From a bacterium (GTDB taxonomy: Archaea; Thermoplasmatota; E2; JACPAO01; JAHFTW01), in NCBI GenBank assembly GCA_040390065.1, contig JAZJZE010000009.1, positions 410,930 to 474,929 on the forward strand: a DNA stretch of 64,000 bases. Direction: 5' to 3'. Below the pieces are notes generated by a model. The model searched no databases, had not been told where the DNA came from, and was given only the letters and a program-made list of their open reading frames with translations. Positions 1,169-60,720 of this stretch are shown one piece after another. The position numbers were made by a program, and so were the translations under genes. Within the stretch, counting starts at the first letter, position 1; each line of letters starts with the position of its first letter.

Positions 1169-1224
1169 GACAGTGAAACGGGACGCGTCTATTTCAAGAC
1201 GGAGCCGGCGGACCAAACGGACGG

Positions 1225-2181
1225 CTACGTGTGCGTCGGGCGTTTGGGGGGAGCCGTCAGGCGGTCGAGCGACGACCGGCCCGAGGGTTCGAGGTAAACG
1301 TAGCGCAGGGAGGGCACGGCGTCGATGAGCTGCTCCTCCAGGCGCCGCAGGATCGTGGCCACCTGGCCTCCAGAGACGTCCGCGTGCAGTTCGATCTCGG
1401 CGCCAAGGAGCACGACCTCCGGGGCGAGGTGCATGCTTTGCAGGTTCACAAGACGCGCCACGGCCGGGTCCTCGGCGAAGATGCGCGTCACCTTGGCGAG
1501 TTCGAGCTTTCCAAGGCCCCGGCCGATGAGGAGGCCCTTGACTTGATTGCCGAGGAAGAAGGCGAAGCCCATGAGGAGCAAGCCGATGGCGACGCTGCCG
1601 AGTCCGTCCCAGATCGGGTCCCCCGTCCAGTACGTCAGGAGCACGGCCGCCGCGGCCAGGGGCAGACCGATGAGGGCAAGCGCGTCCTCGACGATGACGG
1701 TGAGGATGGAGGCGTCGCGGTTCTCGCGCAGGAACTCGCGCACGCTGGTCACGCCCCGCTTGAGCGCTGCACGTCTCGCTTCGCGCAGGGCGACGCTGAG
1801 GCTCGCCAGTTCGATCGCAAACGAGATGGCCAAGACGATGAGGGACAACTTGGGATCGCCGACGTCGTTCGGGTGGCGCATCTTGTCCACGCCCTCGAAG
1901 GCGGAGTAGGCACCCGCCACGCCAAACAACAGGATGGCGACCATGAACGGCCAGAAGTAGGCAGCCTTCGACGTGCCGAAGGGATGCTCCGCCGAGGGAG
2001 GCTGCTCGGAGCGGGCCATGCCCAACAGGAGGAGGAGCTGGTTGCCGACGTCGGAGAAGCTGTGCGCCGCTTCGGCGAGCATTGCGGCGGAATTGGCGAG
2101 CACGCCAGCCACGAGCTTGACGACGGCGATGAGCAAATTGCCAAGGAGCGCTGCGACGACGGCGAGACGTGATTCAGCCAA
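1225..2181 (-). CDS. Cation diffusion facilitator (CDF) family transporter
   Basis: SAAMLAEAAHSFSDVGNQ, HPFG and IVEDALAL motifs with about 6 TM helices. Start placed at TTG 2181 because the longer ORF overlaps the E1 alpha gene. Confidence 0.9.
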   Translation of the reverse strand: MAESRLAVVAALLGNLLIAVVKLVAGVLANSAAMLAEAAHSFSDVGNQLLLLLGMARSEQPPSAEHPFGTSKAAYFWPFMVAILLFGVAGAYSAFEGVDKMRHPNDVGDPKLSLIVLAISFAIELASLSVALREARRAALKRGVTSVREFLRENRDASILTVIVEDALALIGLPLAAAAVLLTYWTGDPIWDGLGSVAIGLLLMGFAFFLGNQVKGLLIGRGLGKLELAKVTRIFAEDPAVARLVNLQSMHLAPEVVLLGAEIELHADVSGGQVATILRRLEEQLIDAVPSLRYVYLEPSGRSSLDRLTAPPKRPTHT

Positions 2182-9672: not shown

Positions 9673-9719
9673 GTCGAGCCTGGGCTGGGTCGCCAGCCTA
9701 TGCGACCATCGGAACCGCC

Positions 9720-9742
9720 TTCTAAAAGCGATTGGGTAGGTC
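9720..9742 (-). promoter_or_regulatory. Shared 23-bp upstream motif, copy 1 (GACCTACCCAATCGCTTTTAGAA)
   Basis: 21/23 identical to 12388-12410. Ends in a TATA-like TTTAGAA about 48 nt before the start codon. Confidence 0.65.
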
Positions 9743-9831
9743 GTCGAACTTGCATTCGGGCTGGGGGCCCCTCCTGTCGGGCGGCGCTCCCGCTCCGCGG
9801 TGCCTCGGCAACGGGCGGCCATGCCATCCTC

Positions 9832-12345: not shown

Positions 12346-12387
12346 TGGTTCGGCGGGTGCCGACCGTGGCAGACCAACTGCAGGACA

Positions 12388-12410
12388 TTCTAAAGGAGAT
12401 TGGGTAGGTC
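12388..12410 (-). promoter_or_regulatory. Shared 23-bp upstream motif, copy 2 (GACCTACCCAATCTCCTTTAGAA)
   Basis: 21/23 identical to 9720-9742, at a similar distance upstream of the gene start. Confidence 0.65.
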
Positions 12411-12684
12411 TTGCACGTCCTGCAAAGGATTTCCTCTCCTGGGAGCTTATGAAGCGCTGCCCGCGCCGGCGGCCCAGTCGGGGATGGCGTCGGCAAGGGG
12501 GGCCAGATCGCTGCGGTCGAGGTGGCGCACGATGGCCCAACGACCATCCGGCATGCGCCATTCACCGTCGAATGCGGTCATGCCCGAAGCTCGTCCCAAA
12601 TCCTCCTTAGGCTTTCCGGCGAAGGCATGGAAGGGTCGGATTGCCGCCACAGCGAAGAAATAATGGGTGCGCTGGTCGGCCGGT

Positions 12685-13742: not shown

Positions 13743-16604
<2,862 letters not shown>

Positions 16605-16738
16605 GGTTGCGCCCAAGCCTGCGTTTCGTAAAAGGCCGATGGCGTTGGCAGGGCCCGCTCCAGGAGGGGGCCGACCTTCTCTCTTTGAGGTTTTGGCGAA
16701 AGAGTATTTATGCGCGGGCTGCACAGGGCGGGACAATC

Positions 16739-17767
16739 ATGTCGTTTTCGCGTCTTGCGGCCACGGGAGTCATCGCGGCCATGGCCTGCGCTGCGGTGCT
16801 GGCTCCGGTGGCCGACGCCGGCTCGCGGCCGGTGTACCTGTTCCTGCGTGACATGAGTTTCCCCTCGAACCCGAACCTGCCCAGGTGCTCGCCGGCCCCG
16901 ACCGGTGCCGCCGTGGGCGACGGGGAATTGACGACCACCGCGCCATGCCCCCTCGACCTCGTGGGGCCGCAGAACAACAGTTCACCGCAGAGTCGCGTCG
17001 TCTTCCCCGCGGTCGAGACGGCCCACCCGACGCAGTTCGTCATGCTCAACCAGAGCCTGAACACGGGCCAGATCTTCGGCCCCGTCCTCGTCCTCCTGTA
17101 CGTGCCTGAGTCGCCCACCGTGCAGAGTGGGAACCTGACCGTGCAACTCGTGGCCTTGCCCAAGACGTACACAGTCAGCGACGTGGGACCGACCGGGGAC
17201 GTGCTGGCTGGCGCCACCATCGACCTTGCGTACCACAACACGACGCTGCCCAACCCGACCAGTCTCATCCCGCCGGATCCGACGAACGTCACGCAGGCCG
17301 AAGCCTACATCGCCGGCCAGCTCTTGGTCTACGGCCTGTCGCAAGTCGGCAAGTCGCAGTACATCCTCGTGCTCGACGACGAAGTGAAGGACCACTACGT
17401 GCAGAAGACCATTGACAAGGACGCCAAGCTGGCCCTGCGCTTCAGCCTCGTACCGAGCCCGCACCCGGCCCCGTTGCCGCTTGGCTTGCCGGTGGCGCAA
17501 GGCGCCGGTCAACCGATCCTCTACAACTTCGCGCTCATGCCGGCCCTCGTGTATGTCCCGTTCTACTCGGCCGACGCGCCGCTGCCGCAGCCGACGCCGC
17601 AGCCCAATCCGCCGCCGCCTCCCCCGCCAGGCCTGCCTCCCTGCCCGGAGTGCCAGCCTCCCGGAAGCTCGACGACGGGCGGCAGCCAGAAGTCAGGCGC
17701 TCCCGAAGCCGTCTTCGTCATGACGGTCCTCGCGGTCGCCGCCCTGAGCCTGCGCCGGCGGACCTGA
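16739..17767 (+). CDS. Secreted surface protein with Pro-rich linker and C-terminal TM/Arg tail
   Basis: Signal peptide; ends KSGAPEAVFVMTVLAVAALSLRRRT, a tripartite sorting-signal-like tail. Confidence 0.8.
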   Translation: MSFSRLAATGVIAAMACAAVLAPVADAGSRPVYLFLRDMSFPSNPNLPRCSPAPTGAAVGDGELTTTAPCPLDLVGPQNNSSPQSRVVFPAVETAHPTQFVMLNQSLNTGQIFGPVLVLLYVPESPTVQSGNLTVQLVALPKTYTVSDVGPTGDVLAGATIDLAYHNTTLPNPTSLIPPDPTNVTQAEAYIAGQLLVYGLSQVGKSQYILVLDDEVKDHYVQKTIDKDAKLALRFSLVPSPHPAPLPLGLPVAQGAGQPILYNFALMPALVYVPFYSADAPLPQPTPQPNPPPPPPPGLPPCPECQPPGSSTTGGSQKSGAPEAVFVMTVLAVAALSLRRRT

Positions 17768-27478: not shown

Positions 27479-27584
27479 GCTGCGTCCACGGATGTGGCTG
27501 CCTTAACGCTGGCGCACGGGCCCGACCCAACCGTGGGCGGCACCAACGTTGAAGTGGGCGACGTTGCTTGCGGCTTGGTTCCCC

Positions 27585-27932
27585 ATGCGCTTTGCCCTGC
27601 TCTCGGCCCTCCTTCTGCTCTGTGTCACCGTGATGGCCGGTTGCTCCGGCTCCACGACGACGTCCAACCCGTCCGGCGACCAGAACTCGGCCGTGGCCAT
27701 CCGGGACTTCAACTTCAACCCGACCACGGTCAACATCCACAAGGGCTCCGCCGTGCCGTGGACCAACACTGGCGGCGCGACCCACACGGTCACGGCCAAC
27801 GACGGCTCGTTCGACTCCGGCAACATCGCGGCTGGCGGCAGCTACAGCCACACGTTCGATGCCGTCGGCACCTTCGCGTACCATTGCAAGCTCCATGCGA
27901 GCATGACGGGCACGATCACGGTCACCGCGTAG
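27585..27932 (+). CDS. Cupredoxin (plastocyanin/amicyanin-like) lipoprotein
   Basis: Lipobox MAGC; type-1 Cu ligands HTVT...YHCKLH..M. Confidence 0.9.
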   Translation: MRFALLSALLLLCVTVMAGCSGSTTTSNPSGDQNSAVAIRDFNFNPTTVNIHKGSAVPWTNTGGATHTVTANDGSFDSGNIAAGGSYSHTFDAVGTFAYHCKLHASMTGTITVTA

Positions 27933-27986: not shown

Positions 27987-28328
27987 ATGCGTCTTGCCGT
28001 CGCCATCCCTCTGGTCGTGCTCACGTTCTCCATCCTCGCCGGCTGCTCCGGTTCGAGCGGCCCGACCGTCGCCGTCCAGACCGTCAACGTCAAGATCAAC
28101 GCCGCGGGGTTCTACCCGGTCGAGGTGTTCATCCACGTCGGCTCGAGCGTTGCCTGGAAGAACACGGACACGGTCGTGCACACCGTCACCGCCGACGCCG
28201 GCGCCTTCGACTCAGGCAACCTGGCAAGCGGCGGCTCCTTCACGCAGACGTTCCAGAACGCGGGCACATTTGCCTACCACTGCAAGGTCCACGCGCGGAT
28301 GACGGGCACGGTCACCGTCTCCGCGTAA
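27987..28328 (+). CDS. Cupredoxin lipoprotein (tandem paralog)
   Basis: Lipobox LAGC; HTVT...YHCKVH..M. Confidence 0.9.
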   Translation: MRLAVAIPLVVLTFSILAGCSGSSGPTVAVQTVNVKINAAGFYPVEVFIHVGSSVAWKNTDTVVHTVTADAGAFDSGNLASGGSFTQTFQNAGTFAYHCKVHARMTGTVTVSA

Positions 28329-28332
28329 GGCG

Positions 28333-29280
28333 TCAACCGGCGGTCCCGACCTGCTTGCTCACTACGGCGGGTAGCACGTGAGCTGCACCGCAGATGTCAG
28401 CCATGGACGACACGCCCTCCCGCGTCATCCACGCCTCGAGGTCCGCGGCAATCGTCCGGAAGACGCCCCAACCCTCGTGCATGACGGCCGTGCCGACTTG
28501 GAACGCGCTCGCCCCGGCCATCGCGTACTCGAGGACGTCGCGGGCAGTGTAGATGCCCCCCGAAGCGATGATGGGGACGCCGAGCCTGGCCGCATGACAG
28601 TCCCAGACGGCGCGCAGGGCGACGGGCTTCAGGGCGTGCCCGGACAGGCCGCCCACGCGGTTGCCCAGGACTGGCCGCCGCACGTCCGGCTCGATTGCGA
28701 TGGCCTTCAGGGTGTTCGTGGCGACGAGCGCATCGGCGCCGGCGTCGACTGCCGCCTTGGCAAGCCGGGCGACGTCATCCGTGTTGGGCGTGAGCTTGAC
28801 CCAGACGGGCACCTTGACGGCTGCCTTGACGGCGCGCACGACGCCCTCGAGACGCAGCGGGTCGCAGCCGATCTCCGAGCCGTAGCCCTTGGCGTGCGGG
28901 CAGGAGACGTTTAGTTCGAGGATCGGCGTTCCGAGCGCCGCCATGCGCGTCGCTGCGTGGGCAAACTCCTCTGCGGAGCCGCCGAAGATGCTGCCGACGA
29001 GGACGGCGCCCGCGCGTTGGGCGATGCGCACTTCCTCGGCGAAGTGGTCGAGGCCAGGCCCCGGGAGGCCCATGGCGTTGAGGAGGCCGCCCTCGACCTC
29101 GACGACGTTGGGGCCCGGGTGGCCGTTGCGCGGCTGCAGGCTCATCGACTTCGTCACGACGCCGCCTGCGCCCTCCCGGACGGCGCGGGCCATGCTGGCA
29201 CCCGTCTCGTTCAGGATGCCGCTTGCAAGGAGGAACGGATTGGGGAAGCGCACGCCGTTGACGGTGGTGGCGAGGTCCAC
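28333..29280 (-). CDS. pyrD: Dihydroorotate dehydrogenase (family 1)
   Basis: NPFLLASG, NAMGL, ELNVSCPH, VKLTPN, GGLSG motifs. Confidence 0.95.
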   Translation of the reverse strand: MDLATTVNGVRFPNPFLLASGILNETGASMARAVREGAGGVVTKSMSLQPRNGHPGPNVVEVEGGLLNAMGLPGPGLDHFAEEVRIAQRAGAVLVGSIFGGSAEEFAHAATRMAALGTPILELNVSCPHAKGYGSEIGCDPLRLEGVVRAVKAAVKVPVWVKLTPNTDDVARLAKAAVDAGADALVATNTLKAIAIEPDVRRPVLGNRVGGLSGHALKPVALRAVWDCHAARLGVPIIASGGIYTARDVLEYAMAGASAFQVGTAVMHEGWGVFRTIAADLEAWMTREGVSSMADICGAAHVLPAVVSKQVGTAG

Positions 29281-29364
29281 GGCGGCCGGCAGGCCGGGGC
29301 GCCACTTGAAGGTGGCCGCCGTCGCGACCCCAAGGCTCAAGACCCGCCGGCCAGATTGCGCGGC

Positions 29365-30450
29365 GTGGAGTCCAGACTGCTTGCTGCAACGACGATTGTG
29401 GCTCTCTTCCTCCTCGCGGGTTGCGTGGCGCCGCCACCGTGCCACGTCCCCTTCGAGCCGACCTACGCTGCGGTGGGGACGCCGGCCGAAGGCGGCGTTG
29501 GGGACAGGCTGCTGCAGGTCACGGTCCTGGAGGACGTGGCCCGGCCAGACACGCGCACCATCCACGTCCTCTGGCCGCGTGATGGCGTGTGGCCCGACGT
29601 CAACGCCACGTCGTCGCACATCGTGCTGCGCGTCTTGGCCCTGCAGAGCGCGGCCGGCATCTTCACGGCCCACGTCCCGTCGGACCGTTCCCTGCGCATC
29701 GTAGCAGCAGGCTCCCTAGCGACCATGTCCCAGATGACGGCCCAGGAGATCCCGGCCGGCACGGCGCCCGTGGACCTCACGATGCGCCTGTTACAGCCCC
29801 GCTTGACGGTCATGCTTGACGGGATGTGGTCCGGCCCGCAGGCGACCCTGTATGTGCCCCCGTACACCAACGTACAGTGGGACCCCCACCCCATCGAATT
29901 CAACGCCGACCCCGCCTGGAGCGAAGCCTACACGCGCAGCCTCCGCCACTTCTCCGCCACCCTGTCGTGGACCAACGGCGCGCAGGGTATCGCCAGCTTC
30001 GGCGTCGCGGCCGACCTCAACGGCGGGGACGCGGACAACTGCTCGTTCCAGGACGGCCGGGACGAGACGACCTCGCCCGGGCTGCAGAAGGAGGGGTTCG
30101 ACACGGACGACACGAGCCAGGGCACCTTCTGCTTCACGCCGACTCCACTCGGGCCGGACCGCCCGGTCGTGTACATCGGGCCGGCCACGCCGCAGGCCGC
30201 GGTCGGACTGCTGGCCCTGCCCTACTCCATCGACGTCACCGCCCAGTTCGACTCCTCGGCCGACCTCCTGCAGGGCTGCACGGTCGGCAACGACCAAGGC
30301 GTCACCCTCGAGTTCATGGACGCCAAGACGGGCGAGATCACCTCCACGCAGGCCGGGCCGACGTACAGTGCGCCGCCGGCCGGCCTCCTCATGGTCGCGG
30401 GTGTCATCGCCCTCGCCGCGTTGGCCCGCCGCGGCCGCGACGCCATGTGA
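29365..30450 (+). CDS. Lipoprotein with additional C-terminal TM/Arg tail
   Basis: LLAGC lipobox; ends SAPPAGLLMVAGVIALAALARRGR. Confidence 0.78.
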   Translation: MESRLLAATTIVALFLLAGCVAPPPCHVPFEPTYAAVGTPAEGGVGDRLLQVTVLEDVARPDTRTIHVLWPRDGVWPDVNATSSHIVLRVLALQSAAGIFTAHVPSDRSLRIVAAGSLATMSQMTAQEIPAGTAPVDLTMRLLQPRLTVMLDGMWSGPQATLYVPPYTNVQWDPHPIEFNADPAWSEAYTRSLRHFSATLSWTNGAQGIASFGVAADLNGGDADNCSFQDGRDETTSPGLQKEGFDTDDTSQGTFCFTPTPLGPDRPVVYIGPATPQAAVGLLALPYSIDVTAQFDSSADLLQGCTVGNDQGVTLEFMDAKTGEITSTQAGPTYSAPPAGLLMVAGVIALAALARRGRDAM

Positions 30451-30479: not shown

Positions 30480-30881
30480 CTACGGGACCGTCATGACCAT
30501 GGCCATGCCCGTGGTCATGGTCCCGTGAAAGCGGCACCAGACGTGGTACGTCCCTTTGGCCACGAAGGTGAAGATCGTGGTCTGGCCCGGCTGCAGGGTC
30601 TGGTTGAGAAGGGTCCCGGACAGCGGGTCGCCGACGTGGTGGATGGTGACGGTGTGGGCGTGGGCGCCGTCGTTGCGGAACGTCGTGGCGGTCCCAATCG
30701 AGACGGAGCGGTTTCCGTTGTCGAAGAAGTTGTCGCGCAGGGTCACCGTGTCCAGGCCACCGTTCGAGGATGACGTCGTGGTCGACGACGACGAGGAGGA
30801 GGACGAGGATGGTTCGCCGCCGAAGCATCCGGCAAGCGGGAACACGACAACAACGCACAACAGGGTAGCCGCGAGGCGCAT
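30480..30881 (-). CDS. Cupredoxin lipoprotein
   Basis: LAGC, Ser/Thr linker, HTVT...WCRFH....GM. Confidence 0.85.
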   Translation of the reverse strand: MRLAATLLCVVVVFPLAGCFGGEPSSSSSSSSSTTTSSSNGGLDTVTLRDNFFDNGNRSVSIGTATTFRNDGAHAHTVTIHHVGDPLSGTLLNQTLQPGQTTIFTFVAKGTYHVWCRFHGTMTTGMAMVMTVP

Positions 30882-30984
30882 GCCCCAGTCCATCCGGCGC
30901 CCAAATTCAAGTCTGTGGCCCCGGCAACGAAGCGTTTGCCTACCCGTCCACCACCGTTAAGGGGAAGGCCCCTGTGGACGCGCC

Positions 30985-35130: not shown

Positions 35131-35253
35131 GGCACCCCCTCGCGCACGGCAATGGCCGACATGGGTCGCCTCTCGGGCCCGACGTAGCCAACGCGTTTTC
35201 AATGCCCCATCCCATCGAGCCGGATTGGCCGCAGGGTGGCCGCTGGTGGTTGT

Positions 35254-36762
35254 GTGAAGCTGCAAACGATTGTTGGAACATGCGTGATCTTAGCTGCATT
35301 CGTGCCGGCCGTGCCTGCCGCGTCGGCGGCTCCTTGGGCCCAGCTCAGCGAGGGCTGCCAGGCAGGAGTCAATGGCACGGGCGGGCCCGTCATCCTTGGG
35401 CCGGCGACCGTCGACGGATCGGACCAAAAGGTCTGCATCGACCCGGACGACCCGGGGGCCTGCGTCGACGGCACTGCCAGTGTCCTAGCCGCCGTTCCCG
35501 GCGCCGATGCATCCCTCACGTACGCCGGAGCCTGCCACGGCGACGGGGCCGCCTGCGACGACATGATCGTGGTGGGACATGCCGACGTCGCGAGCGTCCC
35601 AGCCACAGGCTACGTCCACGACTTCCTCGAGTACAAGCAGTGCGGCCACGCCCCCGGCGTCGGCACCCAATGCGCCCCGATGGTGCATTTCGACACGCCG
35701 GTCGGGACCATCGACGACTCTGCCCTCGTCTACGGGTGTTCGACGCCGGCCTGCGCGGGGCAGCTCCTTGCCTACTTCACGTACGTCGTCCTGTGCTGGC
35801 CGAACGGCTTCGGGTACTGCCCCGAAGGCCTTGGTATCGTGACTCCGGTCGGGCCGTTTTGCGCCGACGTCGACTTCTGTCCCGCGCCGACGCAAGGCGT
35901 CGTCGTCATGGGCACGCCCGTCTGCGAGACGGCCCCCGTGGCGTGCGCCTTGCCGGCCATCGGCATCGAACCGGATTGCCACGCGCCATGCACCGCTCCT
36001 GACGTGGGATACGAACCGGCCTGCGTGACGCCGCCGGTGCCATGCACGCTCCCCGAAATCGGCGTCGAGCCTGACTGCCTCGTGCCGTGCACGCCGCCCG
36101 ATGTCGGCGTCGAGCCTGACTGCACGACGCCACCCACGCCATGCACACCGCCGCAAGTCGGACTTGAGCCCGACTGCACGGTGCCCTGCACGCCGCCGGA
36201 TGTCGGCGTGGAGCCTGACTGCACGACGCCCCCGACTCCTTGCACACCGCCGCAAGTCGGACTCGAGCCCGACTGCCAGACTCCCTGCACACCCCCCGAT
36301 GTCGGCTTCGAGCCCGACTGCTCGGGGCCGCCGACGCCCTGCACGTTCCCGGAGATTGGCATTGAGCCGGATTGCATGGTGCCTTGTGCGGCGCCGGACG
36401 TCGGCTACGAGCCGAATTGTGTGACGCCGCCGGTTCCGTGCACGCCGCCTGCCGTCGGCCTCGAACCTGACTGCCTGGTTCCGTGCACGCCGCCGGACGT
36501 TGGCTTCCAGCCGGACTGCCAGCCAGCGGACGACGATGCGGACGATGACGGCGTCTCCGATGCTGTGGACAATTGTCCGGGCGTCCCGAACGGTGACCAA
36601 GCCGACCAAGACGGCGACGGCGTCGGCGATGCCTGCGACCCTGACGATGACGGCGACGGCATCCCGGACGACTTGGAGCCTACGCTATGCGCCAACGAGA
36701 ACCCCCTGACGCCCCTTGACGGGACGTGTGTCGGCGACGACTATACGCCGCCGCACCCGTGA
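35254..36762 (+). CDS. Secreted Cys/Pro-rich repeat protein with TSP type-3 repeat
   Basis: Signal peptide, 12 PCTPPxVGxEPDC units, then [15 protein letters not shown]...[10 protein letters not shown]. Confidence 0.82.
35941..36519 (+). repeat. Coding tandem repeat, 12 units alternating 15 and 18 aa (99-bp higher-order period)
   Basis: Direct reading of the translation. Confidence 0.9.
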
Positions 36763-50681: not shown

Positions 50682-52193
50682 TCAGATGAGCTTCAGAACG
50701 TCCATTCCACGGCTCAAGTCGCCGGTGAAAAGGTAGCCGTTGTCGTACGCGGTCTCCCACGTGTTCGAGTGGTCCTGGTACTGGCTGATCATCTTCGGCA
50801 CGACGCCGGGGCCGACGTTCGTGAAGTCGAGCAGGATGACGCCGTCACCGTAGTAGCTCATGGCCAAAAGGTCGCGGCCTTCCATGTCCGGGACCATGCG
50901 GCCGTGGTGGGTCGTGCAACTGGCCGAGTGGATCTGGCCGTCGGTGCCCGCGTACGTGGTTGGCTGCACGGGTGGCTCGAAGTAGCCAAGAACCTGCGGG
51001 CTCGCCTCGTTTGAGACGTCGTAGAACCACGTTGCGCCGATTGGAGTGCCGGCCGAGGAGCCGTCCAGGGGCACGGCGGCGCTGGCTGCGCAACCGGGGG
51101 GCAAGCCGCCGCCGCCGGACTCGTCGCCGACGTACAGGACGTCACCCTTGATGTTCATGCCAGCGGAGTGGCTGAACATCTCGACCGAGGCGGAGTTGCT
51201 CGGGCCGTTGGCAACACCAGAGTGCACCGGGATCGACACGATGACCTTCGGGTGCTCCGGGTCGGTCGTGTCCCACAGCTGCGTGTACTGGATGCCGGCG
51301 CAGATGGCGCGGAACTTGTTCTGCGTCGCGTTGTTCCAGAAGAAGATGTGGTGGCAGGACAAGCCGTTCTTGAATTCCTGCACCAATTTCGGGTGTTCCG
51401 GGTCGGTGAGGTTGTAGATGGAGGTGTAGCCGACGCAGTTCGTGATGGAGGCGCTGCACGTTCCGGGGCCGAGGCCGAGCGGGTTGATCGGGCTCGAGGC
51501 TTCGCCACCGTTCGAGCCGGCGTTGTACACGATAGGCGTGCCGGGGACGACGCCCAGCTTGTGGCCGCCCTCGCTGGGGGAGACGTCTGCCAGTTGCACC
51601 GGGTGGACTGGGTCCGTGAAGTCGATGACGTCGAAGCCCGGGCTCGTCGAGATGACGGTGACGAGCCTGCCGTTCGGGTAGGCGATGATGGCGGCGCCGC
51701 GGCCGCCGGTGTCGATGGCCGAGAGCGGGACGGGGTGCGTCGGGTCGGAGATGTCGACGAAGTGGGCCTGCGAGCCGTCCTCCGGAACGACGGCGATGCG
51801 GCCGAAGAGTGCGATTCCTGCGCCCTGCGTCACGTTGCCGCCGACCTGCAGGAGGTGCTGCATGCCCGTGACGTGAGCCGGAAGAGCCGTGCCGTTGATC
51901 GGGTTCCACCAAGCGAGGCAGCCCGTCGTGTACGGCGTCGTGGCGTTGCGTGCCGTGCGGGCCATGCAGCCGTCAGGCGTCGACGGCAGGGGGCCGATGG
52001 CGGGGTTCGAGAGGGTCGGCCAGCCCCACTTGGCGTGCGGGGCGTTCTGCGGGTCTGCCCAGAGAGCGGGTCCGGCGAGGAGGTTGACGGCTGCCGCATG
52101 GTCGTCCGTCGTCGTGGTCGTGGTCTCGGTCTGGGCGCAGCCGGCAAACAGCGCAAAAAACAGCGCCGCGGCCGACAGGAGTCGCAGGGACAT
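50682..52193 (-). CDS. LVIVD-repeat lipoprotein
   Basis: FAGC lipobox; repeated (V/I)D(I/F)(S/T)DP.HP units; CHHI, HS, GDE.GGG, CTTH motifs. Confidence 0.85.
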   Translation of the reverse strand: MSLRLLSAAALFFALFAGCAQTETTTTTTDDHAAAVNLLAGPALWADPQNAPHAKWGWPTLSNPAIGPLPSTPDGCMARTARNATTPYTTGCLAWWNPINGTALPAHVTGMQHLLQVGGNVTQGAGIALFGRIAVVPEDGSQAHFVDISDPTHPVPLSAIDTGGRGAAIIAYPNGRLVTVISTSPGFDVIDFTDPVHPVQLADVSPSEGGHKLGVVPGTPIVYNAGSNGGEASSPINPLGLGPGTCSASITNCVGYTSIYNLTDPEHPKLVQEFKNGLSCHHIFFWNNATQNKFRAICAGIQYTQLWDTTDPEHPKVIVSIPVHSGVANGPSNSASVEMFSHSAGMNIKGDVLYVGDESGGGGLPPGCAASAAVPLDGSSAGTPIGATWFYDVSNEASPQVLGYFEPPVQPTTYAGTDGQIHSASCTTHHGRMVPDMEGRDLLAMSYYGDGVILLDFTNVGPGVVPKMISQYQDHSNTWETAYDNGYLFTGDLSRGMDVLKLI

Positions 52194-52242: not shown

Positions 52243-53577
52243 TCAGGCTAGTTTCAGGACGTCCATGCCGCGGCCGATGTCCCCGGTGAAGACGTAGCCG
52301 TTCCAGACGCGCGCGTTCCACGTGTTGATTCCAGGGGCCCGGTACTGGCTCAGGATGGCCGGATGCGACGGTTCCGTGAAGTCGATCAGCAGGACGCCGG
52401 CGTTGTACCAGGCGATGACGAATTTCTCCTCGCCGGGAACGAGGGTCCCGAAGTGCGCCGTGCAGCCAGCGCCCGGCGTCTCGTCAGGCTCCGTCGGCAC
52501 TTGCGGGACCGGTTCGTCCTGGGGCCGCATGGTGGGGGGGCTGATCCAGCCCTTGAGCACGGGCGACGCCTCGTTCGCGACGTCGTAGAACCACAACGCA
52601 CCAAGGGGCGTGGCAAGTCCCGTCGTTGGCTCGTACGCGAAGCACGCGCCCGGCTGGCCGCCGCCCGAGTATTCGTCGCCGATGATGAGCACCGTGCCCG
52701 CGGCGTTGGAGCCAGCGTAGTGGTGCAAGCCGCGTGTGCCGATGAGGGGATTCGCCGTCTTGTCGACGGTCGCAAGGACCGTGATGCCGAAGTTGGGCTT
52801 GGCGGGGTCGAAGCCGTCGAGGCTCCAGATCTCCGTCGCCTGGACGCCGGCGCAGTAGGCGCGGAACTTAGGTTGGCCCAGCGTTCCGTGGAATGTGATG
52901 CCATGACAGCCGTAGATGCCGAACTTCCCAACGACGACGGGGTGGCAAGGGTCGCGGGCGTCGATGAGTTCGTTGCCGTTGCCCATTCCCGACGACGGTG
53001 CGTTGAAGACGTACTCGGTGCCCGGCACGACCGCCAGGTTGTGGTTGTTGACCCCTTCGAGCTCGACGTTCGACAGCCACACCGGCTGGCGCGGGTCCGT
53101 CACGTTCCAGAACTGCATGCCGAAGTGGTTGCGGCCGGTGGCCAGGATAAGGGTCCGGGTGCCGTCGGGGTGCGGCATGAGGTCGGCCTTGCGGGCGTAT
53201 TCGGTCTTGCCTTCCCGGCCAGTCGAGTTGAACACGAGGACAGGGTGCATCGGGTCGTGCACGTCGGCGATGAAGAAGACGTGGTTGAGGGCCGAGCCGA
53301 AGACGTAGTCGCCGGCGACTTGGTTGCCGGAGCCAGTCGGCCAGGGCACGCCCGCCGAGTCGTTGAGGCGCGCCACGAACTCAAGGCGCGTGACGGACTT
53401 CGGCTGCGGGTTGGCGGCAGTTGGCGCCGTATCCCAGGATGACAACGCAGCGGTCCCGTCGCCGACACGGGCGCTGGAGCACACGACGGGGCTTGACGTG
53501 GTTTCCGGGACCGACGACGACGTGCATCCGGCCAAGGCCGCGAAGGCGAACAGAATGACGGCGAGGATGGCGCGCAC
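52243..53577 (-). CDS. LVIVD-repeat lipoprotein (paralog)
   Basis: LAGC lipobox; DVHDPMHP and NVTDPRQP units; shares WFYDV.NEASP and TGD..RGMDVLKL with its neighbour. Confidence 0.85.
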   Translation of the reverse strand: MRAILAVILFAFAALAGCTSSSVPETTSSPVVCSSARVGDGTAALSSWDTAPTAANPQPKSVTRLEFVARLNDSAGVPWPTGSGNQVAGDYVFGSALNHVFFIADVHDPMHPVLVFNSTGREGKTEYARKADLMPHPDGTRTLILATGRNHFGMQFWNVTDPRQPVWLSNVELEGVNNHNLAVVPGTEYVFNAPSSGMGNGNELIDARDPCHPVVVGKFGIYGCHGITFHGTLGQPKFRAYCAGVQATEIWSLDGFDPAKPNFGITVLATVDKTANPLIGTRGLHHYAGSNAAGTVLIIGDEYSGGGQPGACFAYEPTTGLATPLGALWFYDVANEASPVLKGWISPPTMRPQDEPVPQVPTEPDETPGAGCTAHFGTLVPGEEKFVIAWYNAGVLLIDFTEPSHPAILSQYRAPGINTWNARVWNGYVFTGDIGRGMDVLKLA

Positions 53578-53621
53578 GATGCGCCGACGCGGGCGCCCCC
53601 TTGAAAGCGTTGCGTCGGGCG

Positions 53622-54782
53622 CTAGTACACTTCGAACAGGATGGCGTAGCCCTGCCCGCCGCCGACGCACATCGTCTCGATCGCCAGCCCGCCGCCCTTG
53701 CGGCCGAGGTTGTTGAGGATGTGGCTGGCGATGCGCGTACCGGTTGCGCCCAACGGGTGGCCGAGGGCGATGGCGCCGCCGTTCGGGTTCACGATGTCCT
53801 CGGGGATGCCGAGCTCACGGATGGAGGCAAGGACCTGGCTGCCGAAGGCCTCGTTGATCTCGAACTGCGCCAGGTCCGCGACCTTGACCCCCGTCTGCTT
53901 GAGAAGGCGGCGCACCGCGGGGATGGGGCCGATGCCCATGACTTCGGGCTCGACGCCAGCGACGGAAGCGCCGAGGATTGCGGCCTTCGGCTCCAGGCTG
54001 TGCTCCTGGGCGAACTTGGCGCTCGTGACGAGGCTCATGGCGGCGCCGTCGGACATCTGGCTCGCGTTGCCGGCGGTGACGACGCCGTCGGCCTTGAAGA
54101 CGGGTTTGAGGGCGGCGGTGGCTTCGTACGTGGACCCGTAGCGAATGCCCTCGTCCTTGGAGACGACGACCGGCTTGCCGTCGGGACCGGGTACGGTCAC
54201 GGGGACGATCTCGGCATCGAAGAGCCCGGATTTCTGGGCGGCTTCGGCGCGGTTGTGGCTGCGGACACCCCAGCGGTCCATGTCCTCGCGCGGCACCTTG
54301 TAGCGCTTGGCGACCTCTTCTGCCGTGATGCCCATGGCGTTGTAGTACGTCTTGCGGCGGTCCCACATGCGGGGATTGACGTAGAGTTCCGGGGTCATGC
54401 CGACCATGGGGATCATGCTCATGGTCTCGACGCCGCCTGCCACGAGGCAATCGTTCCAGCCCGACTGGATGGTGCTGTGTGCCAAGGCCATGGCGTAGGC
54501 GGAGCTCGAGCAGAAGCGGTTGATGGTCGCGGCACCGGACGCGTCTGGAAGGCCTGCGAGAAGGCCGACTTGGCGCGCGACGTTGTAGCCCTGCGGTCCC
54601 TCCGTCATGGCGCAGCCGACAAGCAGGTCTTCGACGTGCTTGGCGTCGAGTTTGGTTCGAGACAGCAGACCCTCCAGGCACCAGGCGCCCAGGTCGTCGC
54701 TGCGGGTCTTCGCAAACGAACCCTTGAACGCGCGGCCGATGGGCGTCCGGCAGGCGTCGATGATGACTGCTTCCTGCTGCAC
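53622..54782 (-). CDS. Acetyl-CoA C-acyltransferase (thiolase)
   Basis: NRFCSS, NEAF, GHPLGATG, MCVGGGQG. Confidence 0.96.
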   Translation of the reverse strand: MQQEAVIIDACRTPIGRAFKGSFAKTRSDDLGAWCLEGLLSRTKLDAKHVEDLLVGCAMTEGPQGYNVARQVGLLAGLPDASGAATINRFCSSSAYAMALAHSTIQSGWNDCLVAGGVETMSMIPMVGMTPELYVNPRMWDRRKTYYNAMGITAEEVAKRYKVPREDMDRWGVRSHNRAEAAQKSGLFDAEIVPVTVPGPDGKPVVVSKDEGIRYGSTYEATAALKPVFKADGVVTAGNASQMSDGAAMSLVTSAKFAQEHSLEPKAAILGASVAGVEPEVMGIGPIPAVRRLLKQTGVKVADLAQFEINEAFGSQVLASIRELGIPEDIVNPNGGAIALGHPLGATGTRIASHILNNLGRKGGGLAIETMCVGGGQGYAILFEVY

Positions 54783-54914: not shown

Positions 54915-55424
54915 ATGACGCAAACGCATCGCACGAAACGAACGCTCTGGCTCGCCGCCGCCCTGGCCCTCGCGGGCCTCGCCGCTTGGGCCCCTCCCGT
55001 CGTCGCGGATGGCAACGCCGGCACCGTGAAGGTGCAGGACGACAGCGACACCGGGAACATGTCGAACGACCCGCACGTCGGCTGCAGCTTCTCCGTCGAG
55101 GGATTCAACATGGCCGCCGCCTCCGGCACGCTCTCGATCCAGGCATGGCCGCCAACCGGCGACCGCAGCGAGGTCCTCGCCGCGAACTGGACAGCGGACG
55201 CCGACTCGGATGCGACGGGCAACCACTTCGTCGCAGGCGAGTTCTCACTGCCGTCCGGTCACTACAAGGTGTCCGCGAGCAACGAGCAGCACGCCAAGAC
55301 CAAGGTCTTCTGGGTCGACTGCCCCAACGCCAGTGTGCCGGTCTTCCCGACCACGACCGCACTGACCATCGGCACGACGGCCGCCCTCGGCGGAGCGTTC
55401 CTCATCCTGCGCCGCCGGCCTTGA
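54915..55424 (+). CDS. Small secreted protein with PEF-CTERM-like sorting signal (VPVFPT, TM, RRRP)
   Basis: Signal peptide; C-terminus SVPVFPTTTALTIGTTAALGGAFLILRRRP. Confidence 0.82.
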   Translation: MTQTHRTKRTLWLAAALALAGLAAWAPPVVADGNAGTVKVQDDSDTGNMSNDPHVGCSFSVEGFNMAAASGTLSIQAWPPTGDRSEVLAANWTADADSDATGNHFVAGEFSLPSGHYKVSASNEQHAKTKVFWVDCPNASVPVFPTTTALTIGTTAALGGAFLILRRRP

Positions 55425-55428
55425 TGGG

Positions 55429-56415
55429 ATGACCCCGCCCCTCCTCCTCTCTTCCACCCTTTCTCCGCCCATACCGGCGGACCCGCAGCCGCAGCCAAGC
55501 CCAGCGCCGAGCGCGCGAGCCTACATCGGTTTGGCAATCCTCGGGTGGGGCCTTTCCATGGTTCTTGGCGCATCCCCGCACGAAGACCCGTTGGTCGGCG
55601 CCGCGTTGGCCTTCTTCGGCGCCGCACTCCTCGTCTCGTCACCGCGGCTTCCGCACGTCGAGCACCTGCCCTCCACCCTCGTCGCTTGCGTTGGGATGGC
55701 ACTATGCGTTGCCATCGCCGCAGGGACCGCCCTCGCGCACACCGGGCTGAACGTGACGAAGGCCGCCGTCCTTGCCGCGGGGCTCGCGTTGGTCGCGTGC
55801 GCTCCCCTCATTGCGACCCACAGGACCATTCCATGGCGCGGCGACCAGGTCCCGCTGGCCACCGTCGCGGCCGCAATCCTCGTCGCGCTGGCCGCTCCCC
55901 TTGCCGTCTGGGGCGCGCAGGCCACCTTCAAGGACGCCTTCGGGGCGACGCCGGTCGAAACCTTCGTCGCCTTCGGCCTCCTCGTGCCGCTCGCGTTCCT
56001 GGCCAACCTCGCAGGACTGCACGCCGTCGCGCGGGGCCAGGATCTCATCTATGCAACGCCGCGAGGCCAGCTGGACGTCCAGGTCGGCGCGGCCTGCTCC
56101 GGCGTCGAGGCCATGGCCGTCTTCACGGCCGTCCTGGCCTTGTACTGCCTCATCGAACGCCCCGGTGGGAGGGCCCTGGGCATGTGGAGTCTTGTCGGCC
56201 TAATCGGCGTCTACGTGGCCAACATTCTGCGCCTCACGCTGCTCGTCGCCGTTGGCTACTGGTGGGGAACGGACGCACTGCTTCGCGCGCACGCGGAGGC
56301 CGGCTGGATCGTCTTCGTGGCCTGGGCACTCGTGTTTTCGTGGCTCGTCCGTTCGCAGGTGTCGCGTTCGCGCAAACGCGGGGCAGCCCCGCTGCCGCAG
56401 GATGGCCCTCCGTAG
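55429..56415 (+). CDS. Exosortase/archaeosortase family protein
   Basis: Multi-TM protein with VGAACSG (Cys), ANILRL (Arg) and AHAEAG (His) catalytic triad. Confidence 0.88.
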   Translation: MTPPLLLSSTLSPPIPADPQPQPSPAPSARAYIGLAILGWGLSMVLGASPHEDPLVGAALAFFGAALLVSSPRLPHVEHLPSTLVACVGMALCVAIAAGTALAHTGLNVTKAAVLAAGLALVACAPLIATHRTIPWRGDQVPLATVAAAILVALAAPLAVWGAQATFKDAFGATPVETFVAFGLLVPLAFLANLAGLHAVARGQDLIYATPRGQLDVQVGAACSGVEAMAVFTAVLALYCLIERPGGRALGMWSLVGLIGVYVANILRLTLLVAVGYWWGTDALLRAHAEAGWIVFVAWALVFSWLVRSQVSRSRKRGAAPLPQDGPP

Positions 56416-57929: not shown

Positions 57930-58649
57930 CCGCCGAAACAGTCAACCGCCCGCCGGCCCCAATCCATGTGGCACCCGCCGGGAACGTCGGCACGTTGATG
58001 GAAGGCGACTCCCCAGCCTCGAATAGACCCCATTCTGTTTCCCAGCCACTCTCGCGAATGTCTGGCAAGCGGCATCCGACTACGCGTCGCATGGACTTGC
58101 ACCCCGAGGGACGATGACCGTTTCAACAAATCCGCAAGAGACGTCAGGACCAAGTCCATCATCCCATTCCCGCGACTGTGTCGTTTCTGCGTCTCATCCA
58201 GCCCGTCTCCAGGCTCCAGCTTCTGCCGACCCGTTCTGCGCCTTGCGGCGCTGGTGTGGGGATCTTCCTCAGCCACCCTTGCGGGCTACCGTCAGCCGCT
58301 CTGAGGCGAGGGAGTCAATTCAGCGGCACGCCCGCCTGCCCTTTACGGTTTCGGCGCTATTCAACTTCGTTCAGGTTCCGAACCAGACCGGCTTGGGCAT
58401 CGAAGTCGTCCAGGAAGACGCGCTCCCAGTCACCGCACTCCGCACACGAACATTCCTCATCGTGCGCCAGGGGTACGCAGCCCATGGCTTTGCGCGGCAA
58501 AGGGAGGGGCGGTAGCGTGAATTCCCTACTCCAGCCACCCAACATGCAAGAGATCCCGCCATGACGCCCATGAGAACGGCCCGAACCGGCGCAGGCTTCC
58601 GCTTCAGCCGACGCCGCATGGAGGCGCGGCCGCCCCTTTCGAAAAGGCC

Positions 58650-59102
58650 CTAGGCTCGCGACCCATTTTCTACGCCTGCCGGCAGACGCGCACGAATGTG
58701 GCCCAGCAGCGCGTCCGCCTGCGCAGCCGAAATCCGTCGAATCCGGATGACCAGGGCTCGGCCCGAGGAGGACCGTAGTCTCAGGCCGACAACTAGAGCC
58801 AAGGAAGTCGACGCGCCGGCGCCCACGATCGCAAACTCATCGATTTCCTCCCACCTGAGCACCTTTTTCCTGAAAGCATAAGTCATGGAAACGGTCCGTT
58901 CCGTAAGGCGGATTTCCATTGTAAGCACGGACCACAGGAACCATGCATAGAAGCCACCGAACAGCAACGCGAACAGGACCGGGCCAACGTGCTCGCTTGA
59001 AACAATCCCGTCCCAGACAGATATCATTGCCAAAGGGAGAAAGATGATGCTGGGCCCAAGAATGTTGGGGCGGGGATGAATCACCAGGTCGCCCACGAAC
59101 AT
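58650..59102 (-). CDS. Membrane protein with bacterial PH-like domain
   Basis: Two TM helices followed by IRLTERTV...LRWEEI; atypical codon usage. Confidence 0.6.
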   Translation of the reverse strand: MFVGDLVIHPRPNILGPSIIFLPLAMISVWDGIVSSEHVGPVLFALLFGGFYAWFLWSVLTMEIRLTERTVSMTYAFRKKVLRWEEIDEFAIVGAGASTSLALVVGLRLRSSSGRALVIRIRRISAAQADALLGHIRARLPAGVENGSRA

Positions 59103-59292
59103 TTTCCCCCAGAATTCGCATGCCCAAAGCACCCCGAAGCGAAAATCGCGGCGAGGGAACACGCGGCGACAAACAAGGATGAGTGGTTTGCCATTTCCCG
59201 CCTTCGCGTGAAAGAGGAGCGCATGTAACAATAACCTTTGCCGGCCAGCCGTCCGCCCCAATCTTCATCCCGCCTCCGTCCTCGCCGCCAGC

Positions 59293-59706
59293 GTGGACGA
59301 CGCGCCGCGCCAGGGGCCCCCGGGTGCGGCCCGCTTCGTCGGCTTCGGCGTGCTGTTGTTCCTGCTCGCCATCTTGATGGCGCGCCTCATCATCTACGGG
59401 TCGTGGGGTTGGGCGGTCGCCGCCTTTGCCGCTCCCGCGGTCCTCCTGGTCCTGCGCTTCCTCATGGGTTGGGGGGCCGCCTTCGTCCTGTCCGGCTTCT
59501 TCGTCGCGGCCGTCCTGGGCTTGCGCGCCATCCTCGACGAACCCCGCGTCAGTTGGGCCCTGCTCCTCGTGCTGACCCTGTTCCTGTTCTCCGCCATGCT
59601 GGCCGGCCGCGTGGCCGTGACACTGTGGGAGTTGCGCAAGCCTGGGCCCGAGGCCGAGCCGAAACCGGATACCGACGGCGACCTATTGCAAGGAAAACCC
59701 GAGTAG
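59293..59706 (+). CDS. Small 4-TM membrane protein
   Basis: Hydrophobic 137-aa ORF. Confidence 0.72.
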   Translation: MDDAPRQGPPGAARFVGFGVLLFLLAILMARLIIYGSWGWAVAAFAAPAVLLVLRFLMGWGAAFVLSGFFVAAVLGLRAILDEPRVSWALLLVLTLFLFSAMLAGRVAVTLWELRKPGPEAEPKPDTDGDLLQGKPE

Positions 59707-59795
59707 CCGAAAAGAGATTGGAGAGAGAAGGAAAAGGGAACTTGGGCGGGCCCATACGGGCCACGCCACGCACTTGGACCTGATGGTCCAAATGC

Positions 59796-60002
59796 TTACT
59801 TGTTGGCCAGGAACGGGAGGCCCGTGCGCTGGTTGATGCCGACCTTCTTGCCGGCCGGCATCTCGGACCACTTGCAGCCCGGCTTCAGCTTCGCGCCGGT
59901 CTTGCAGAAGAAGTAGATCTGCTGCTTGCGGCCGCCCTTCAGTTCGACGTTGCGGGTCGCGAGGACGTAGGTTCCCTTCTTGGTCTTGTGTTCGTACGGC
60001 AT
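59796..60002 (-). CDS. Small basic hypothetical protein (68 aa)
   Basis: MPYEHKTKKGTYVL...LKGGRKQQIYFF...NQRTGLPFL; strongly biased codons; TTATA box upstream. Confidence 0.85.
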   Translation of the reverse strand: MPYEHKTKKGTYVLATRNVELKGGRKQQIYFFCKTGAKLKPGCKWSEMPAGKKVGINQRTGLPFLANK

Positions 60003-60061
60003 AGGTGGGATTCCCCCAGTGTCCAACAGAAGGGCGACCCCTATAACCTTGCCGAAACACA

Positions 60062-60310
60062 ACAGGAGGGCAACAGGAGGGCATTTTCGTCTCCGCCCAG
60101 AAGGGCATTTTCCTCCTGTTGGCGGCCCTCCCAGGAAGGGGCGAAATCCCCCCCAGGAGAGGCCCAGAAGGTGCCCTTCCGGTGGGACCGGTGGATTCCA
60201 TCCAGGAGGCCGATGATCGGCAGGGCGGAGCAGGGGCCGTTGCCCAGAGTCGCCGGTTGCATCCTGGAGGCGCCTGAAGGAACATGTAGGCACCTGAAGG
60301 CACCTGAACT
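60062..60310 (+). repeat. Array of about 12 MCWGRAGG-like octamers, partly 10/11-bp phased
   Basis: Copies at 60062, 60073, 60097, 60131, 60153, 60164, 60202, 60263, 60273, 60283, 60293, 60303 (some degenerate), plus one inverted copy at 60112. Confidence 0.6.
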
Positions 60311-60464
60311 CCACTGTAGTATAGTAGAGGCTACCAGATTGGGAGGCAGACGCCCGGCAGGCGGTAAGGCGAACGCGCTGGGGCCGGGTTCCGGCGGGCG
60401 CTTGCGGAAGGCCGCCTGCGTGTAGCCCCGCAAGGCTCCCGAGTATATGGTGGGAAAAGGTGGA

Positions 60465-60535
60465 GAAAGTCGGGACTGCCGGATTTGAACCGGCGTAATC
60501 CAGATCTACAGTCTGGCGCCCAACCGAGCTAGACG
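60465..60535 (-). repeat. 71-bp direct duplication of tRNA-Tyr (all but the 5'-most 8 nt)
   Basis: Identical to 60642-60712; 177-bp period. Confidence 0.9.
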
Positions 60536-60646
60536 CAGAGCCCCGCGAAGGGGCTGCGCCCCTTTCGAAACCGGCGCGTCGTGGGGCGCTCGCTTCGCTC
60601 GGCCCCACATAGCCAACGATGAAACGGAAGGGAAAAGGGGGGAAAG

Positions 60647-60720
60647 TCGGGACTGCCGGATTTGAACCGGCGTAATCCAGATCTACAGTCTGGCGCCCAA
60701 CCGAGCTAGACGAAGTCCCG
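60647..60720 (-). tRNA. tRNA-Tyr(GTA), intronless
   Basis: CGGGACT/AGTCCCG acceptor stem with C1:G72 and A73; CCAGA-CT-GTA-GA-TCTGG; GCCGG-TTCAAAT-CCGGC. Confidence 0.92.

Follow-up and report, generated by a model that had tools for sequence, protein, structure and literature searches.

The DNA stretch analysed here, 64,000 nucleotides (nt) of contig JAZJZE010000009.1 (assembly GCA_040390065.1) and referred to as the window, carries two consecutive genes on the forward strand, one for a small secreted protein with a tripartite C-terminal tail and one for an archaeosortase-family enzyme. Their features are:

54915..55424 (+): gene for a secreted candidate substrate protein of 169 amino acids (aa), with a signal peptide, an immunoglobulin (Ig)-like beta-sandwich and a tripartite C-terminal tail (open reading frame (ORF), homologues, AlphaFold2 (AF2) model)
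54915..55007 (+): predicted Sec-type signal peptide, aa 1-31, with a basic n-region, an Ala/Leu h-region and VVA before DG (sequence reading, modelled helix 10-25, rule-based check)
55011..55325 (+): passenger domain, aa ~33-137, a seven-strand beta-sandwich with two conserved Cys (57 and 136)
55335..55349 (+): VPVFP signature motif, aa 141-145, directly against the helix
55350..55409 (+): hydrophobic transmembrane stretch within the tail, 20 uncharged residues, aa 146-165 (modelled helix 148-166)
55410..55424 (+): basic cluster RRRP (55410-55421), its RRR conserved among tails, and stop codon TGA (55422-55424)
55429..56415 (+): gene for a predicted polytopic archaeosortase-family enzyme of 328 aa, of an uncatalogued subfamily (TIGR04178, PF09721, AF2 model)
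56095..56097 (+): Cys223 codon (ACSG); the residue, proposed as nucleophile by its role in the family, is invariant in 55 of 55 clade members
56230..56232 (+): codon of Arg268 (ANILRL), invariant in 55 of 55
56290..56292 (+): codon of His288 (HAEAGW), invariant in 55 of 55

The N-terminus of the 169-aa protein, MTQTHRTKRTLWLAAALALAGLAAWAPPVVA followed by DG, was found to be signal-peptide-like in a rule-based check, basic and then hydrophobic, and the signal peptide would be cleaved between VVA and DG. The C-terminus reads VPVFP-TTTALTIGTTAALGGAFLIL-RRRP. Between the stop codon of this ORF and the next ATG, at 55429, there is a spacer of 4 nt. The protein belongs to no Pfam or NCBIfam family. 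A database search returned 47 matches at E ≤ 0.001, its own entry counted, and the closer homologues, whose sources name Thermoplasmatota, all end in [IV]P[VF]FP[ST] followed by a Gly-rich helix and RRR.

Alignment of the family revealed four conserved blocks in the passenger domain, NDPHV.C, W.PTG, GHYK and K.KVFWV.C, and conservation of Cys57 and Cys136, which suggests a disulfide between these two residues. The AF2 model (predicted local distance difference test (pLDDT) 84.7) has seven strands within residues 37-134 and a C-terminal helix at 148-166. In a Foldseek comparison of the passenger no PDB entry matched at E ≤ 0.001; those listed were generic Ig-like sandwiches, with weak CopC/PcoC rows among them. 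A PDB sequence search with the passenger returned nothing. His54 and His116 are conserved as well and might have a binding role. A metal-binding role of these histidines was considered and was not adopted, its geometry being uncheckable without coordinates.

The enzyme passes the family models TIGR04178 (59.2 bits, cut-off 23) and PF09721 (38.7 bits, cut-off 25.7). A word-indexed search gave 55 homologous proteins at E ≤ 0.001, with 41-65 % identity when the window's own entry is excluded; wherever the source names an organism, it is Thermoplasmata, Thermoplasmatota or 'Euryarchaeota archaeon'. TIGR04178 matched all 55 members of this clade. The AF2 model (pLDDT 87.2) is mostly helical, with long helices across residues 28-318, and the enzyme is accordingly modelled as a polytopic integral membrane protein. 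Neither a PDB sequence search nor Foldseek found a solved structure related to it. The database prediction of this enzyme is shorter, starting at Met44 (285 aa, 87 % coverage). The 328-aa form, and with it the 4-nt spacing, is favoured because residues ~28-45 are conserved and modelled as a confident helix, and because the ATG at 55429 is the first start of the frame.

An initial annotation, made from the letters of the window, had described a secreted 169-aa protein ending in VPVFP, a transmembrane helix and RRRP, placed 4 nt upstream of a multi-pass membrane protein with a Cys/Arg/His triad. The ORF coordinates, the spacer and the three invariant residues bear this description out. It had also called the substrate domain, with its two cysteines, unfamiliar.

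The tail signal and its genomic neighbourhood

Genome contigs were scanned with the enzyme alignment, which gave 16 related loci (L001 to L016) from 13 metagenome-assembled genome (MAG) assemblies; the window's own genome is not among them. The sources name 11 of the loci Thermoplasmata or Thermoplasmatota archaeon, 4 'Uncultured Halobacteriales archaeon' and 1 'Methanobacteriota archaeon'. Tail genes were identified in the window and the 16 loci by a hidden Markov model (HMM) of the substrate family together with a motif rule ([IVL]P.F[PTG], an uncharged helix and a basic cluster), applied to six-frame ORFs of at least 80 aa. The full tail was found in 15 of 1685 ORFs, none of them in a spurious frame, and 12 of these 15 stop directly upstream of the archaeosortase gene. 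Because so few ORFs carry the tail and most of those lie directly upstream of the enzyme, the association of tail and enzyme is beyond chance. L010 is cut by a contig end, leaving 15 assessable loci, in 11 of which (L002-L008, L011, L013, L014 and L015) the tail gene ends immediately before the enzyme gene, in the same orientation. In the 12 adjacent cases, these loci and the window, the distance from the stop of the tail gene to the conserved core of the enzyme is 10-349 nt.

Alignment of the 15 tails showed that the Pro, the Phe and the preceding [IVL] of the motif are present in all of them and the closing Pro in 13; none has Glu at the third position. The consensus is [IV]-P-[VF]-F-[P/T/G], with a Gly-rich transmembrane helix immediately after it and then RRR. 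The tails end in RRR or RGR, and the unit of motif, helix and basic cluster lies 0-4 residues from the stop codon in all 15. A signal-peptide-like N-terminus was recognised in 14 of the tail bearers by a simple rule and in the fifteenth (P0256, in L012) by eye. In 8 of the 15 proteins the Thr/Ser/Pro content of the 30 residues before the motif is at least 0.57.

Neither the full window protein nor any of eight isolated tails (E ≤ 10) brought a known CTERM model to its cut-off, and the models that were listed align with the helix and the basic part only. Scans of the 47 family members at E ≤ 0.01 gave single weak CTERM matches only, including VPXXXP-CTERM for 1 of the 47 (E 0.0059). PEF-CTERM, PGF-CTERM and PEFG-CTERM were never listed for the window protein, the eight tails or the 47 family members, in scans that held no true PEF-CTERM protein as a positive control.

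According to a preprint on sorting signals (Haft 2023), signals that are cut by membrane-embedded enzymes have no spacer between motif and helix, and the tail of the window protein has this spacerless join. Among the attributes of sorting signals given in section 5 of the same preprint are a C-terminal location, multiple occurrence, a helix, a basic cluster and a signal peptide, and further bearers that share nothing but the tail and homologues with another signal or none (Haft 2023). Judged from sequence, the tail described here shows a position at the extreme C-terminus, a conserved motif, a helix with a basic cluster, bearers with predicted signal peptides, unrelated bearers and homologues with another signal.

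Such homologues were found among bacteria. Structural look-alikes of the passenger in the Atlas (TM up to 0.80) are bacterial, mostly from Actinomycetota, and include hypothetical proteins; one cluster, at TM 0.80, has a name that refers to LPXTG-anchored proteins of Actinomycetota. An Atlas search limited to named clusters gave no usable feature match for the passenger. Distant homologues of the passenger retain the blocks NxPHV.C, GHYK and K.KVFWV.C. In two of them, P0094 (LPTTG) and P0095 (LPVTG), the motif is followed by a helix and then by RRRR or RRRK. The LPXTG_anchor model, applied to seven distant homologues, gave 16.3 bits for P0088 against a cut-off of 15.9; the other six scored below it. 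By these sequences, predicted LPXTG-type anchors stand in bacterial relatives of the passenger in place of the archaeal tail. Because the homologues carry another sorting signal, the archaeal tail would do the same job, surface anchoring after cleavage, by way of a different enzyme.

Some further observations were made in the related loci. Directly downstream of the archaeosortase gene, 8 of the 16 loci encode a conserved protein of ~200 aa without a Pfam family, at the following positions within the loci:

L001: 6952-7569
L002: 7041-7625
L005: 2625-3188
L006: 6908-7450
L009: 6886-7506
L011: 7016-7534
L013: 6992-7513
L016: 6928-7519

Second copies were present in L002, L005 and L013. The protein is a possible partner in the system. 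The window has no copy of it; there, the gene next to the enzyme gene on its downstream side is HAD/phosphoserine-phosphatase-like and lies on the opposite strand.

Other secreted proteins have differing tails of a helix plus RRR, namely those at 599-1417 (-) in L001, 265-1083 (-) in L009 (…VPGF…RRR), 8626-9801 (+) in L003 and 3672-4982 (-) in L008, which points to additional C-terminal anchoring signals in these genomes. In the window itself the tails of three other proteins (9832-12561, 16397-17767 and 28957-30450) were considered as members of the VPxFP-type signal and rejected; they have no P-x-F motif and generic model matches only.

Probable clients of the enzyme clade and its relation to ArtC

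The passengers of the tail proteins were compared by BLASTP after removal of the last 36 residues. Family F1, with the NDPHV domain, comprises the window protein and those of L004, L006, L014 (copy b) and L015. Family F2, with a repeat of ~65 aa, comprises those of L002, L005, L011 (copy b) and L013, and the L006 passenger has a further domain in common with the last two of these. Family F3 (L003 and L007) gave a weak PKD-like match. The passengers of L008, L011 (copy a), L014 (copy a) and L012 have no relative in the set; that of L012 contains an Ice_binding domain (193.8 bits). Four more tail proteins without the NDPHV domain were found in the database (P0253, P0261, P0262 and P0267). Because the same tail occurs on at least three unrelated passenger families and on four unrelated proteins, the system is one-to-many across the enzyme clade and not strictly dedicated.

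A careful IQ-TREE analysis of 17 enzymes, rooted on three sister-clade sequences, showed that L014 and L015 (support 95/95) branch off first, followed by L004, all with an NDPHV gene upstream. The window and L006, which have an NDPHV gene upstream too, lie in an unresolved crown. Other subclades correspond to the neighbouring gene: L011, L013 and L005 have F2 neighbours (97/98) and L003 and L007 have F3 neighbours (95/96). The enzymes of L001, L009 and L016, without an adjacent target, form a subclade of their own (99/96). Because the NDPHV family adjoins the enzyme in the basal lineages, the cassette of NDPHV protein and enzyme looks ancestral. The simplest reading is that this cassette was ancestral, that the adjacent client was later replaced or lost, and that the signal spread to other proteins.

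Two enzyme paralogues on different contigs were found in three MAG assemblies (L003/L004, L008/L012 and L010/L016). In the first two of these pairs each paralogue has its own tail-bearing gene beside or near it, so that these assemblies hold two tails each. This hints at client specialisation among the paralogues.

The initial annotation had taken the window genes for a dedicated pair and had proposed conserved adjacency in homologues as a check. The adjacency was recovered, in the 11 of 15 assessable loci given above; the word 'dedicated' could not be kept for the clade, in which three or more unrelated families bear the tail, two tail genes lie in tandem both in L011 and in L014, and the tail gene of L012 lies at a distance from the enzyme. 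It is unlikely that the NDPHV-domain protein is the sole client in the window's own genome, which would make the pair strictly dedicated there. The 4-nt spacing speaks for such a pair, as do the single VPxFP tail in the 64-kb window, the NDPHV gene beside the enzyme in five loci (window, L004, L006, L014 and L015) that include the two earliest enzyme branches, and the separate tail gene of each enzyme in the genomes with two paralogues (L003/L004 and L008/L012). Dedicated systems are defined by Haft through consecutive genes; these were seen in 11 of 15 loci and in the window, but a single target family homologous over the full length was not. Orthologous enzymes have unrelated passengers as neighbours, of F2 in L002, L005, L011 and L013 and of F3 in L003 and L007. 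The Ice_binding protein of L012, the second tail genes in tandem in L011 and L014, and the four further database proteins likewise argue against a sole client. A weaker argument is that NDPHV-family proteins also occur on long contigs (of 264,642, 416,043 and 123,816 bp, for example) whose lengths match no listed enzyme contig.

The enzyme was scored against the subfamily models of NCBIfam 20.0 (June 2026 release) with their curated cut-offs. The best named subfamily is ArtC (TIGR03762), with 65.5 bits against a cut-off of 100 and with only residues 177-306, the catalytic part, aligned. All 55 clade members match this model (best E 3.8e-18) and none reaches 100 bits. Scores for other subfamilies lie far under their cut-offs (XrtG 45.1 vs 102.75, XrtV 34.4 vs 313, ArtH 12.1 vs 200), and the same holds for EpsH, XrtX, XrtE, XrtA, thaumarchaeosortase and others. 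ArtB was absent from the matches of the window enzyme at E ≤ 10, and ArtA matched 10 of the 55 clade members weakly (best E 6.2e-9). A profile search of 1.84 billion representatives yielded 1061 matches at E ≤ 0.001, of which 26 at E ≤ 1e-30. From the 150 listed representatives, the 86 with lengths of at least about 260 aa were scanned against the subfamily models, which gave one true ArtC (P0219, 194 bits), ten ArtC matches under the cut-off (69-88 bits) and one with the family signature only; the other 74 had nothing at E ≤ 1e-18. The true ArtC scored only 74.6 bits against the clade profile.

A quick IQ-TREE analysis with support from SH-aLRT only was made of 81 rows, 18 clade members and 63 representatives, fragments and the remaining matches being left out. 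The window enzyme falls in a group of 26 rows (SH-aLRT 98), which together with a sister group of 12 rows sits behind a stem of 0.85 changes per column (99). P0219 lies outside this group of 38 rows, on a long branch (1.91). The HMM scores and the tree agree, and by both measures the enzyme clade is a distinct, uncatalogued archaeosortase subfamily with ArtC as its nearest named relative. The June 2026 release of NCBIfam contains no model that captures either the enzyme clade or the tail, and a literature search, with subscription journals and supplements outside its reach, found nothing on an archaeosortase subfamily in Thermoplasmatota or on a VPxFP-type signal. The subfamily scoring that the initial annotation had advised came out in favour of its suggestion of an undescribed sortase subfamily and signal, as the enzyme stays under every named cut-off and the tail under that of every CTERM model.

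ArtC is described as the enzyme paired with PEF-CTERM, and ArtB as that paired with VPXXXP-CTERM. It could be argued that the window genes are a divergent member of the ArtC/PEF-CTERM system and that nothing new is needed, which is regarded as improbable. ArtC is the best-scoring subfamily for the window enzyme and for all 55 clade members, and one homologue (P0033) is named 'archaeosortase C (PEF-CTERM variant)' by its source. The PEF-CTERM motif, which we take to be P-E-F-P, has its Pro and its Phe-Pro in register with the P-[VF]-F-P found here. Against this stand the 100-bit cut-off that no clade member reaches, the restriction of the window match to the catalytic part, and the low score and separate branching of P0219. 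PEF-CTERM is also missing from all tail scans, and Glu from the third motif position of all 15 tails. The likeness to PEF-CTERM put forward in the initial annotation is therefore upheld as far as ArtC, the PEF-CTERM enzyme, is the nearest subfamily; the signal itself matched PEF-CTERM in no scan.

Proposed mechanism and comparison with known systems

The window likely holds a co-transcribed cassette of a high-GC Thermoplasmatota-type archaeon, made up of a Sec-exported Ig-like surface protein and an archaeosortase that recognises its tripartite signal and belongs to a subfamily serving several clients. The probable use of archaeosortase and tail is the attachment of surface proteins to the membrane of the cell. 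After export, the helix of the tail would hold the protein in the membrane. The polytopic enzyme would then dock this helix and the [IV]P[VF]F[P] motif, and Cys223, assisted by Arg268 and His288, would cleave at or near the motif. Transfer of the new C-terminus to a membrane lipid would leave the passenger lipid-anchored on the cell surface. Cleavage, its position and the attachment of lipid are all inferred from ArtA of Haloferax volcanii, which is described as the only archaeosortase studied experimentally, with a conserved Cys and Arg needed. In H. volcanii, it has been reported that taking off the C-terminal helix and attaching a prenyl-type lipid both require ArtA, and that homologues of PssA and PssD take part in maturation. 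Among the 35 other window proteins, NCBIfam scans (E ≤ 1e-12) detected no PssA/PssD-like gene and no second exosortase-family gene. For the exosortase/archaeosortase family as a whole a Cys-Arg-His triad has been proposed by Haft.

Several points weigh against this reading. In four of the 15 assessable loci the gene immediately before that of the enzyme bears no tail: L001, L009 and L016, which form one enzyme subclade and have a histidine kinase and a HTH_10 protein upstream instead, and L012, where the tail gene (VPSFP) lies 2.4 kb downstream of the enzyme on the other strand. The motif occurs in the variants VPFFT and IPVFG without the last Pro, and because both recur in further database proteins its boundary is not settled. 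A search with the tail profile gave at least 23 matches, many of them from the input loci, and is no census; the 64-kb window, which is part of a contig of 608,712 bp, contributes a single tail, as said. The tree contains one verified ArtC, the long-branched P0219, which makes the grouping test a weak one, and for this reason the separation from ArtC rests mainly on the HMM scores. The residues reported as critical for ArtA activity are Cys173, Arg214 and Arg253, with no His among them, so that the role of His288 is the least certain. Finally, cleavage and lipidation in the enzyme clade are argued by analogy.

It is very improbable that the tail is a permanent, uncleaved membrane anchor and the neighbouring archaeosortase acts on something else: unprocessed tail-anchored surface proteins with a helix and a basic end do exist, and the three rejected window tails have no common motif and no match to an archaeosortase signal model, but a plain anchor has no need of an invariant Pro-x-Phe adjoining the helix in proteins that are otherwise unrelated, the position of 12 of the 15 tails directly upstream of the enzyme would be left unexplained, and the passenger's relatives in bacteria have predicted cleavable signals of the sortase type at this position.

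The cassette of client and archaeosortase can be compared with several known systems. With ArtC/PEF-CTERM it shares, besides the nearest named subfamily, a catalytic core with Cys, Arg and His and a tripartite signal; it differs in having Val or Phe where PEF has Glu, in forming a separate clade in the tree and in its taxon, Thermoplasmatota-type MAGs. With ArtA/PGF-CTERM it shares the tripartite signal, and ArtA serves as the mechanistic model for the window enzyme, whereas the ArtA motif is PGF and that of the window P-x-F-P. We know of no report of ArtA adjacent to a substrate gene. Like the VPXXXP-CTERM signal of ArtB, the window signal starts with Val-Pro and has a second Pro downstream, but its spacing, VPxxP, is one residue shorter. 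Gram-positive sortase A also achieves surface display by way of a C-terminal tripartite signal, and the passenger homologues ending in LPTTG or LPVTG, a helix and RRR would be of this type. The LPXTG signal is described as having a spacer before the helix and as leading to cell-wall anchoring; the sortase A fold is unrelated, whereas the window motif abuts the helix and the window enzyme is predicted to be polytopic. In the JDVT-CTERM system, with its myxosortase-like protease, target and enzyme genes are reported to be adjacent in 16 of 17 cases, comparable to the 11 of 15 found here. JDVT targets, of which each genome has one, are full-length homologues of one another, unlike the several unrelated families found here, with two tail genes in some loci.

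More tentatively, and at somewhat less than even odds in our judgement, the clade would serve a group of uncultured high-GC Thermoplasmatota-type archaea as their principal means of anchoring surface proteins, with a wholly hydrophobic motif, [IV]P[VF]F[P], that has no acidic or glycine signature, an origin as a two-gene cassette to which other clients were added later, and a passenger module in common with Gram-positive bacteria, where LPXTG and sortase display it, that was refitted across domains with a non-homologous means of anchoring.

New exosortase and archaeosortase subfamilies with signals of their own belong to a known type of finding, whose number is growing. The prediction of lipid-anchored archaeal surface proteins builds on archaeosortase subfamilies and their signals. 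Because no NCBIfam 20.0 model captures the clade or the tail, these enzymes are named only generically in Thermoplasmatota MAGs and their clients are 'hypothetical'. Defining the pair of enzyme and tail would allow prediction of the surface proteome of uncultured soil and groundwater archaea. The cassette is very short (a 169-aa client, a 4-nt spacer and the enzyme), which would make it a compact system for testing archaeosortase specificity, and the predicted exchange for LPXTG-type anchors on the same passenger domain illustrates the movement of surface modules between anchoring systems.

Other features of the window

The window has a G+C content of 66.8 % and contains archaeal housekeeping genes, among which an archaeal-type GltX, a Hel308-like helicase, Elp3, pyruvate phosphate dikinase, GcvT/H/PA and TrkAH. 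Two secreted paralogues, 503 and 475 aa long, are encoded at 50682-52193 (-) and 52243-53670 (-), with lipobox-like N-termini (…FAGC and …LAGC) and the common ending MDVLKL[IA]. Neither gave a Pfam match at E ≤ 0.001 or an NCBIfam match at E ≤ 1e-12. Three small secreted proteins (27549-27932 (+), 27987-28328 (+) and 30480-30893 (-)) have a C-terminal Cys/His/Met pattern, …YHCK.HA.MTGT.TV, which by eye looks like a blue-copper (cupredoxin)-like site; they had no NCBIfam match at E ≤ 1e-12.

Thrombospondin type 3 repeats were found in large proteins encoded at 9832-12561 (-), 8314-9822 (-) and 35236-36762 (+). PF02412 scored 91 bits on the first and 36 bits on the third of these, and the first two showed MtsC-like NCBIfam matches below the cut-off. 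The first, of 909 aa, ends in a helix and RRK, without the P-x-F motif. Two tRNA-Tyr(GTA) genes are located at 60469-60537 and 60646-60720. Beside them, within 58000-60720, is a 2.5-kb stretch of low G+C (0.62-0.63 vs 0.66-0.70 around it) with few convincing genes, which could be an integrated element or its remnant.

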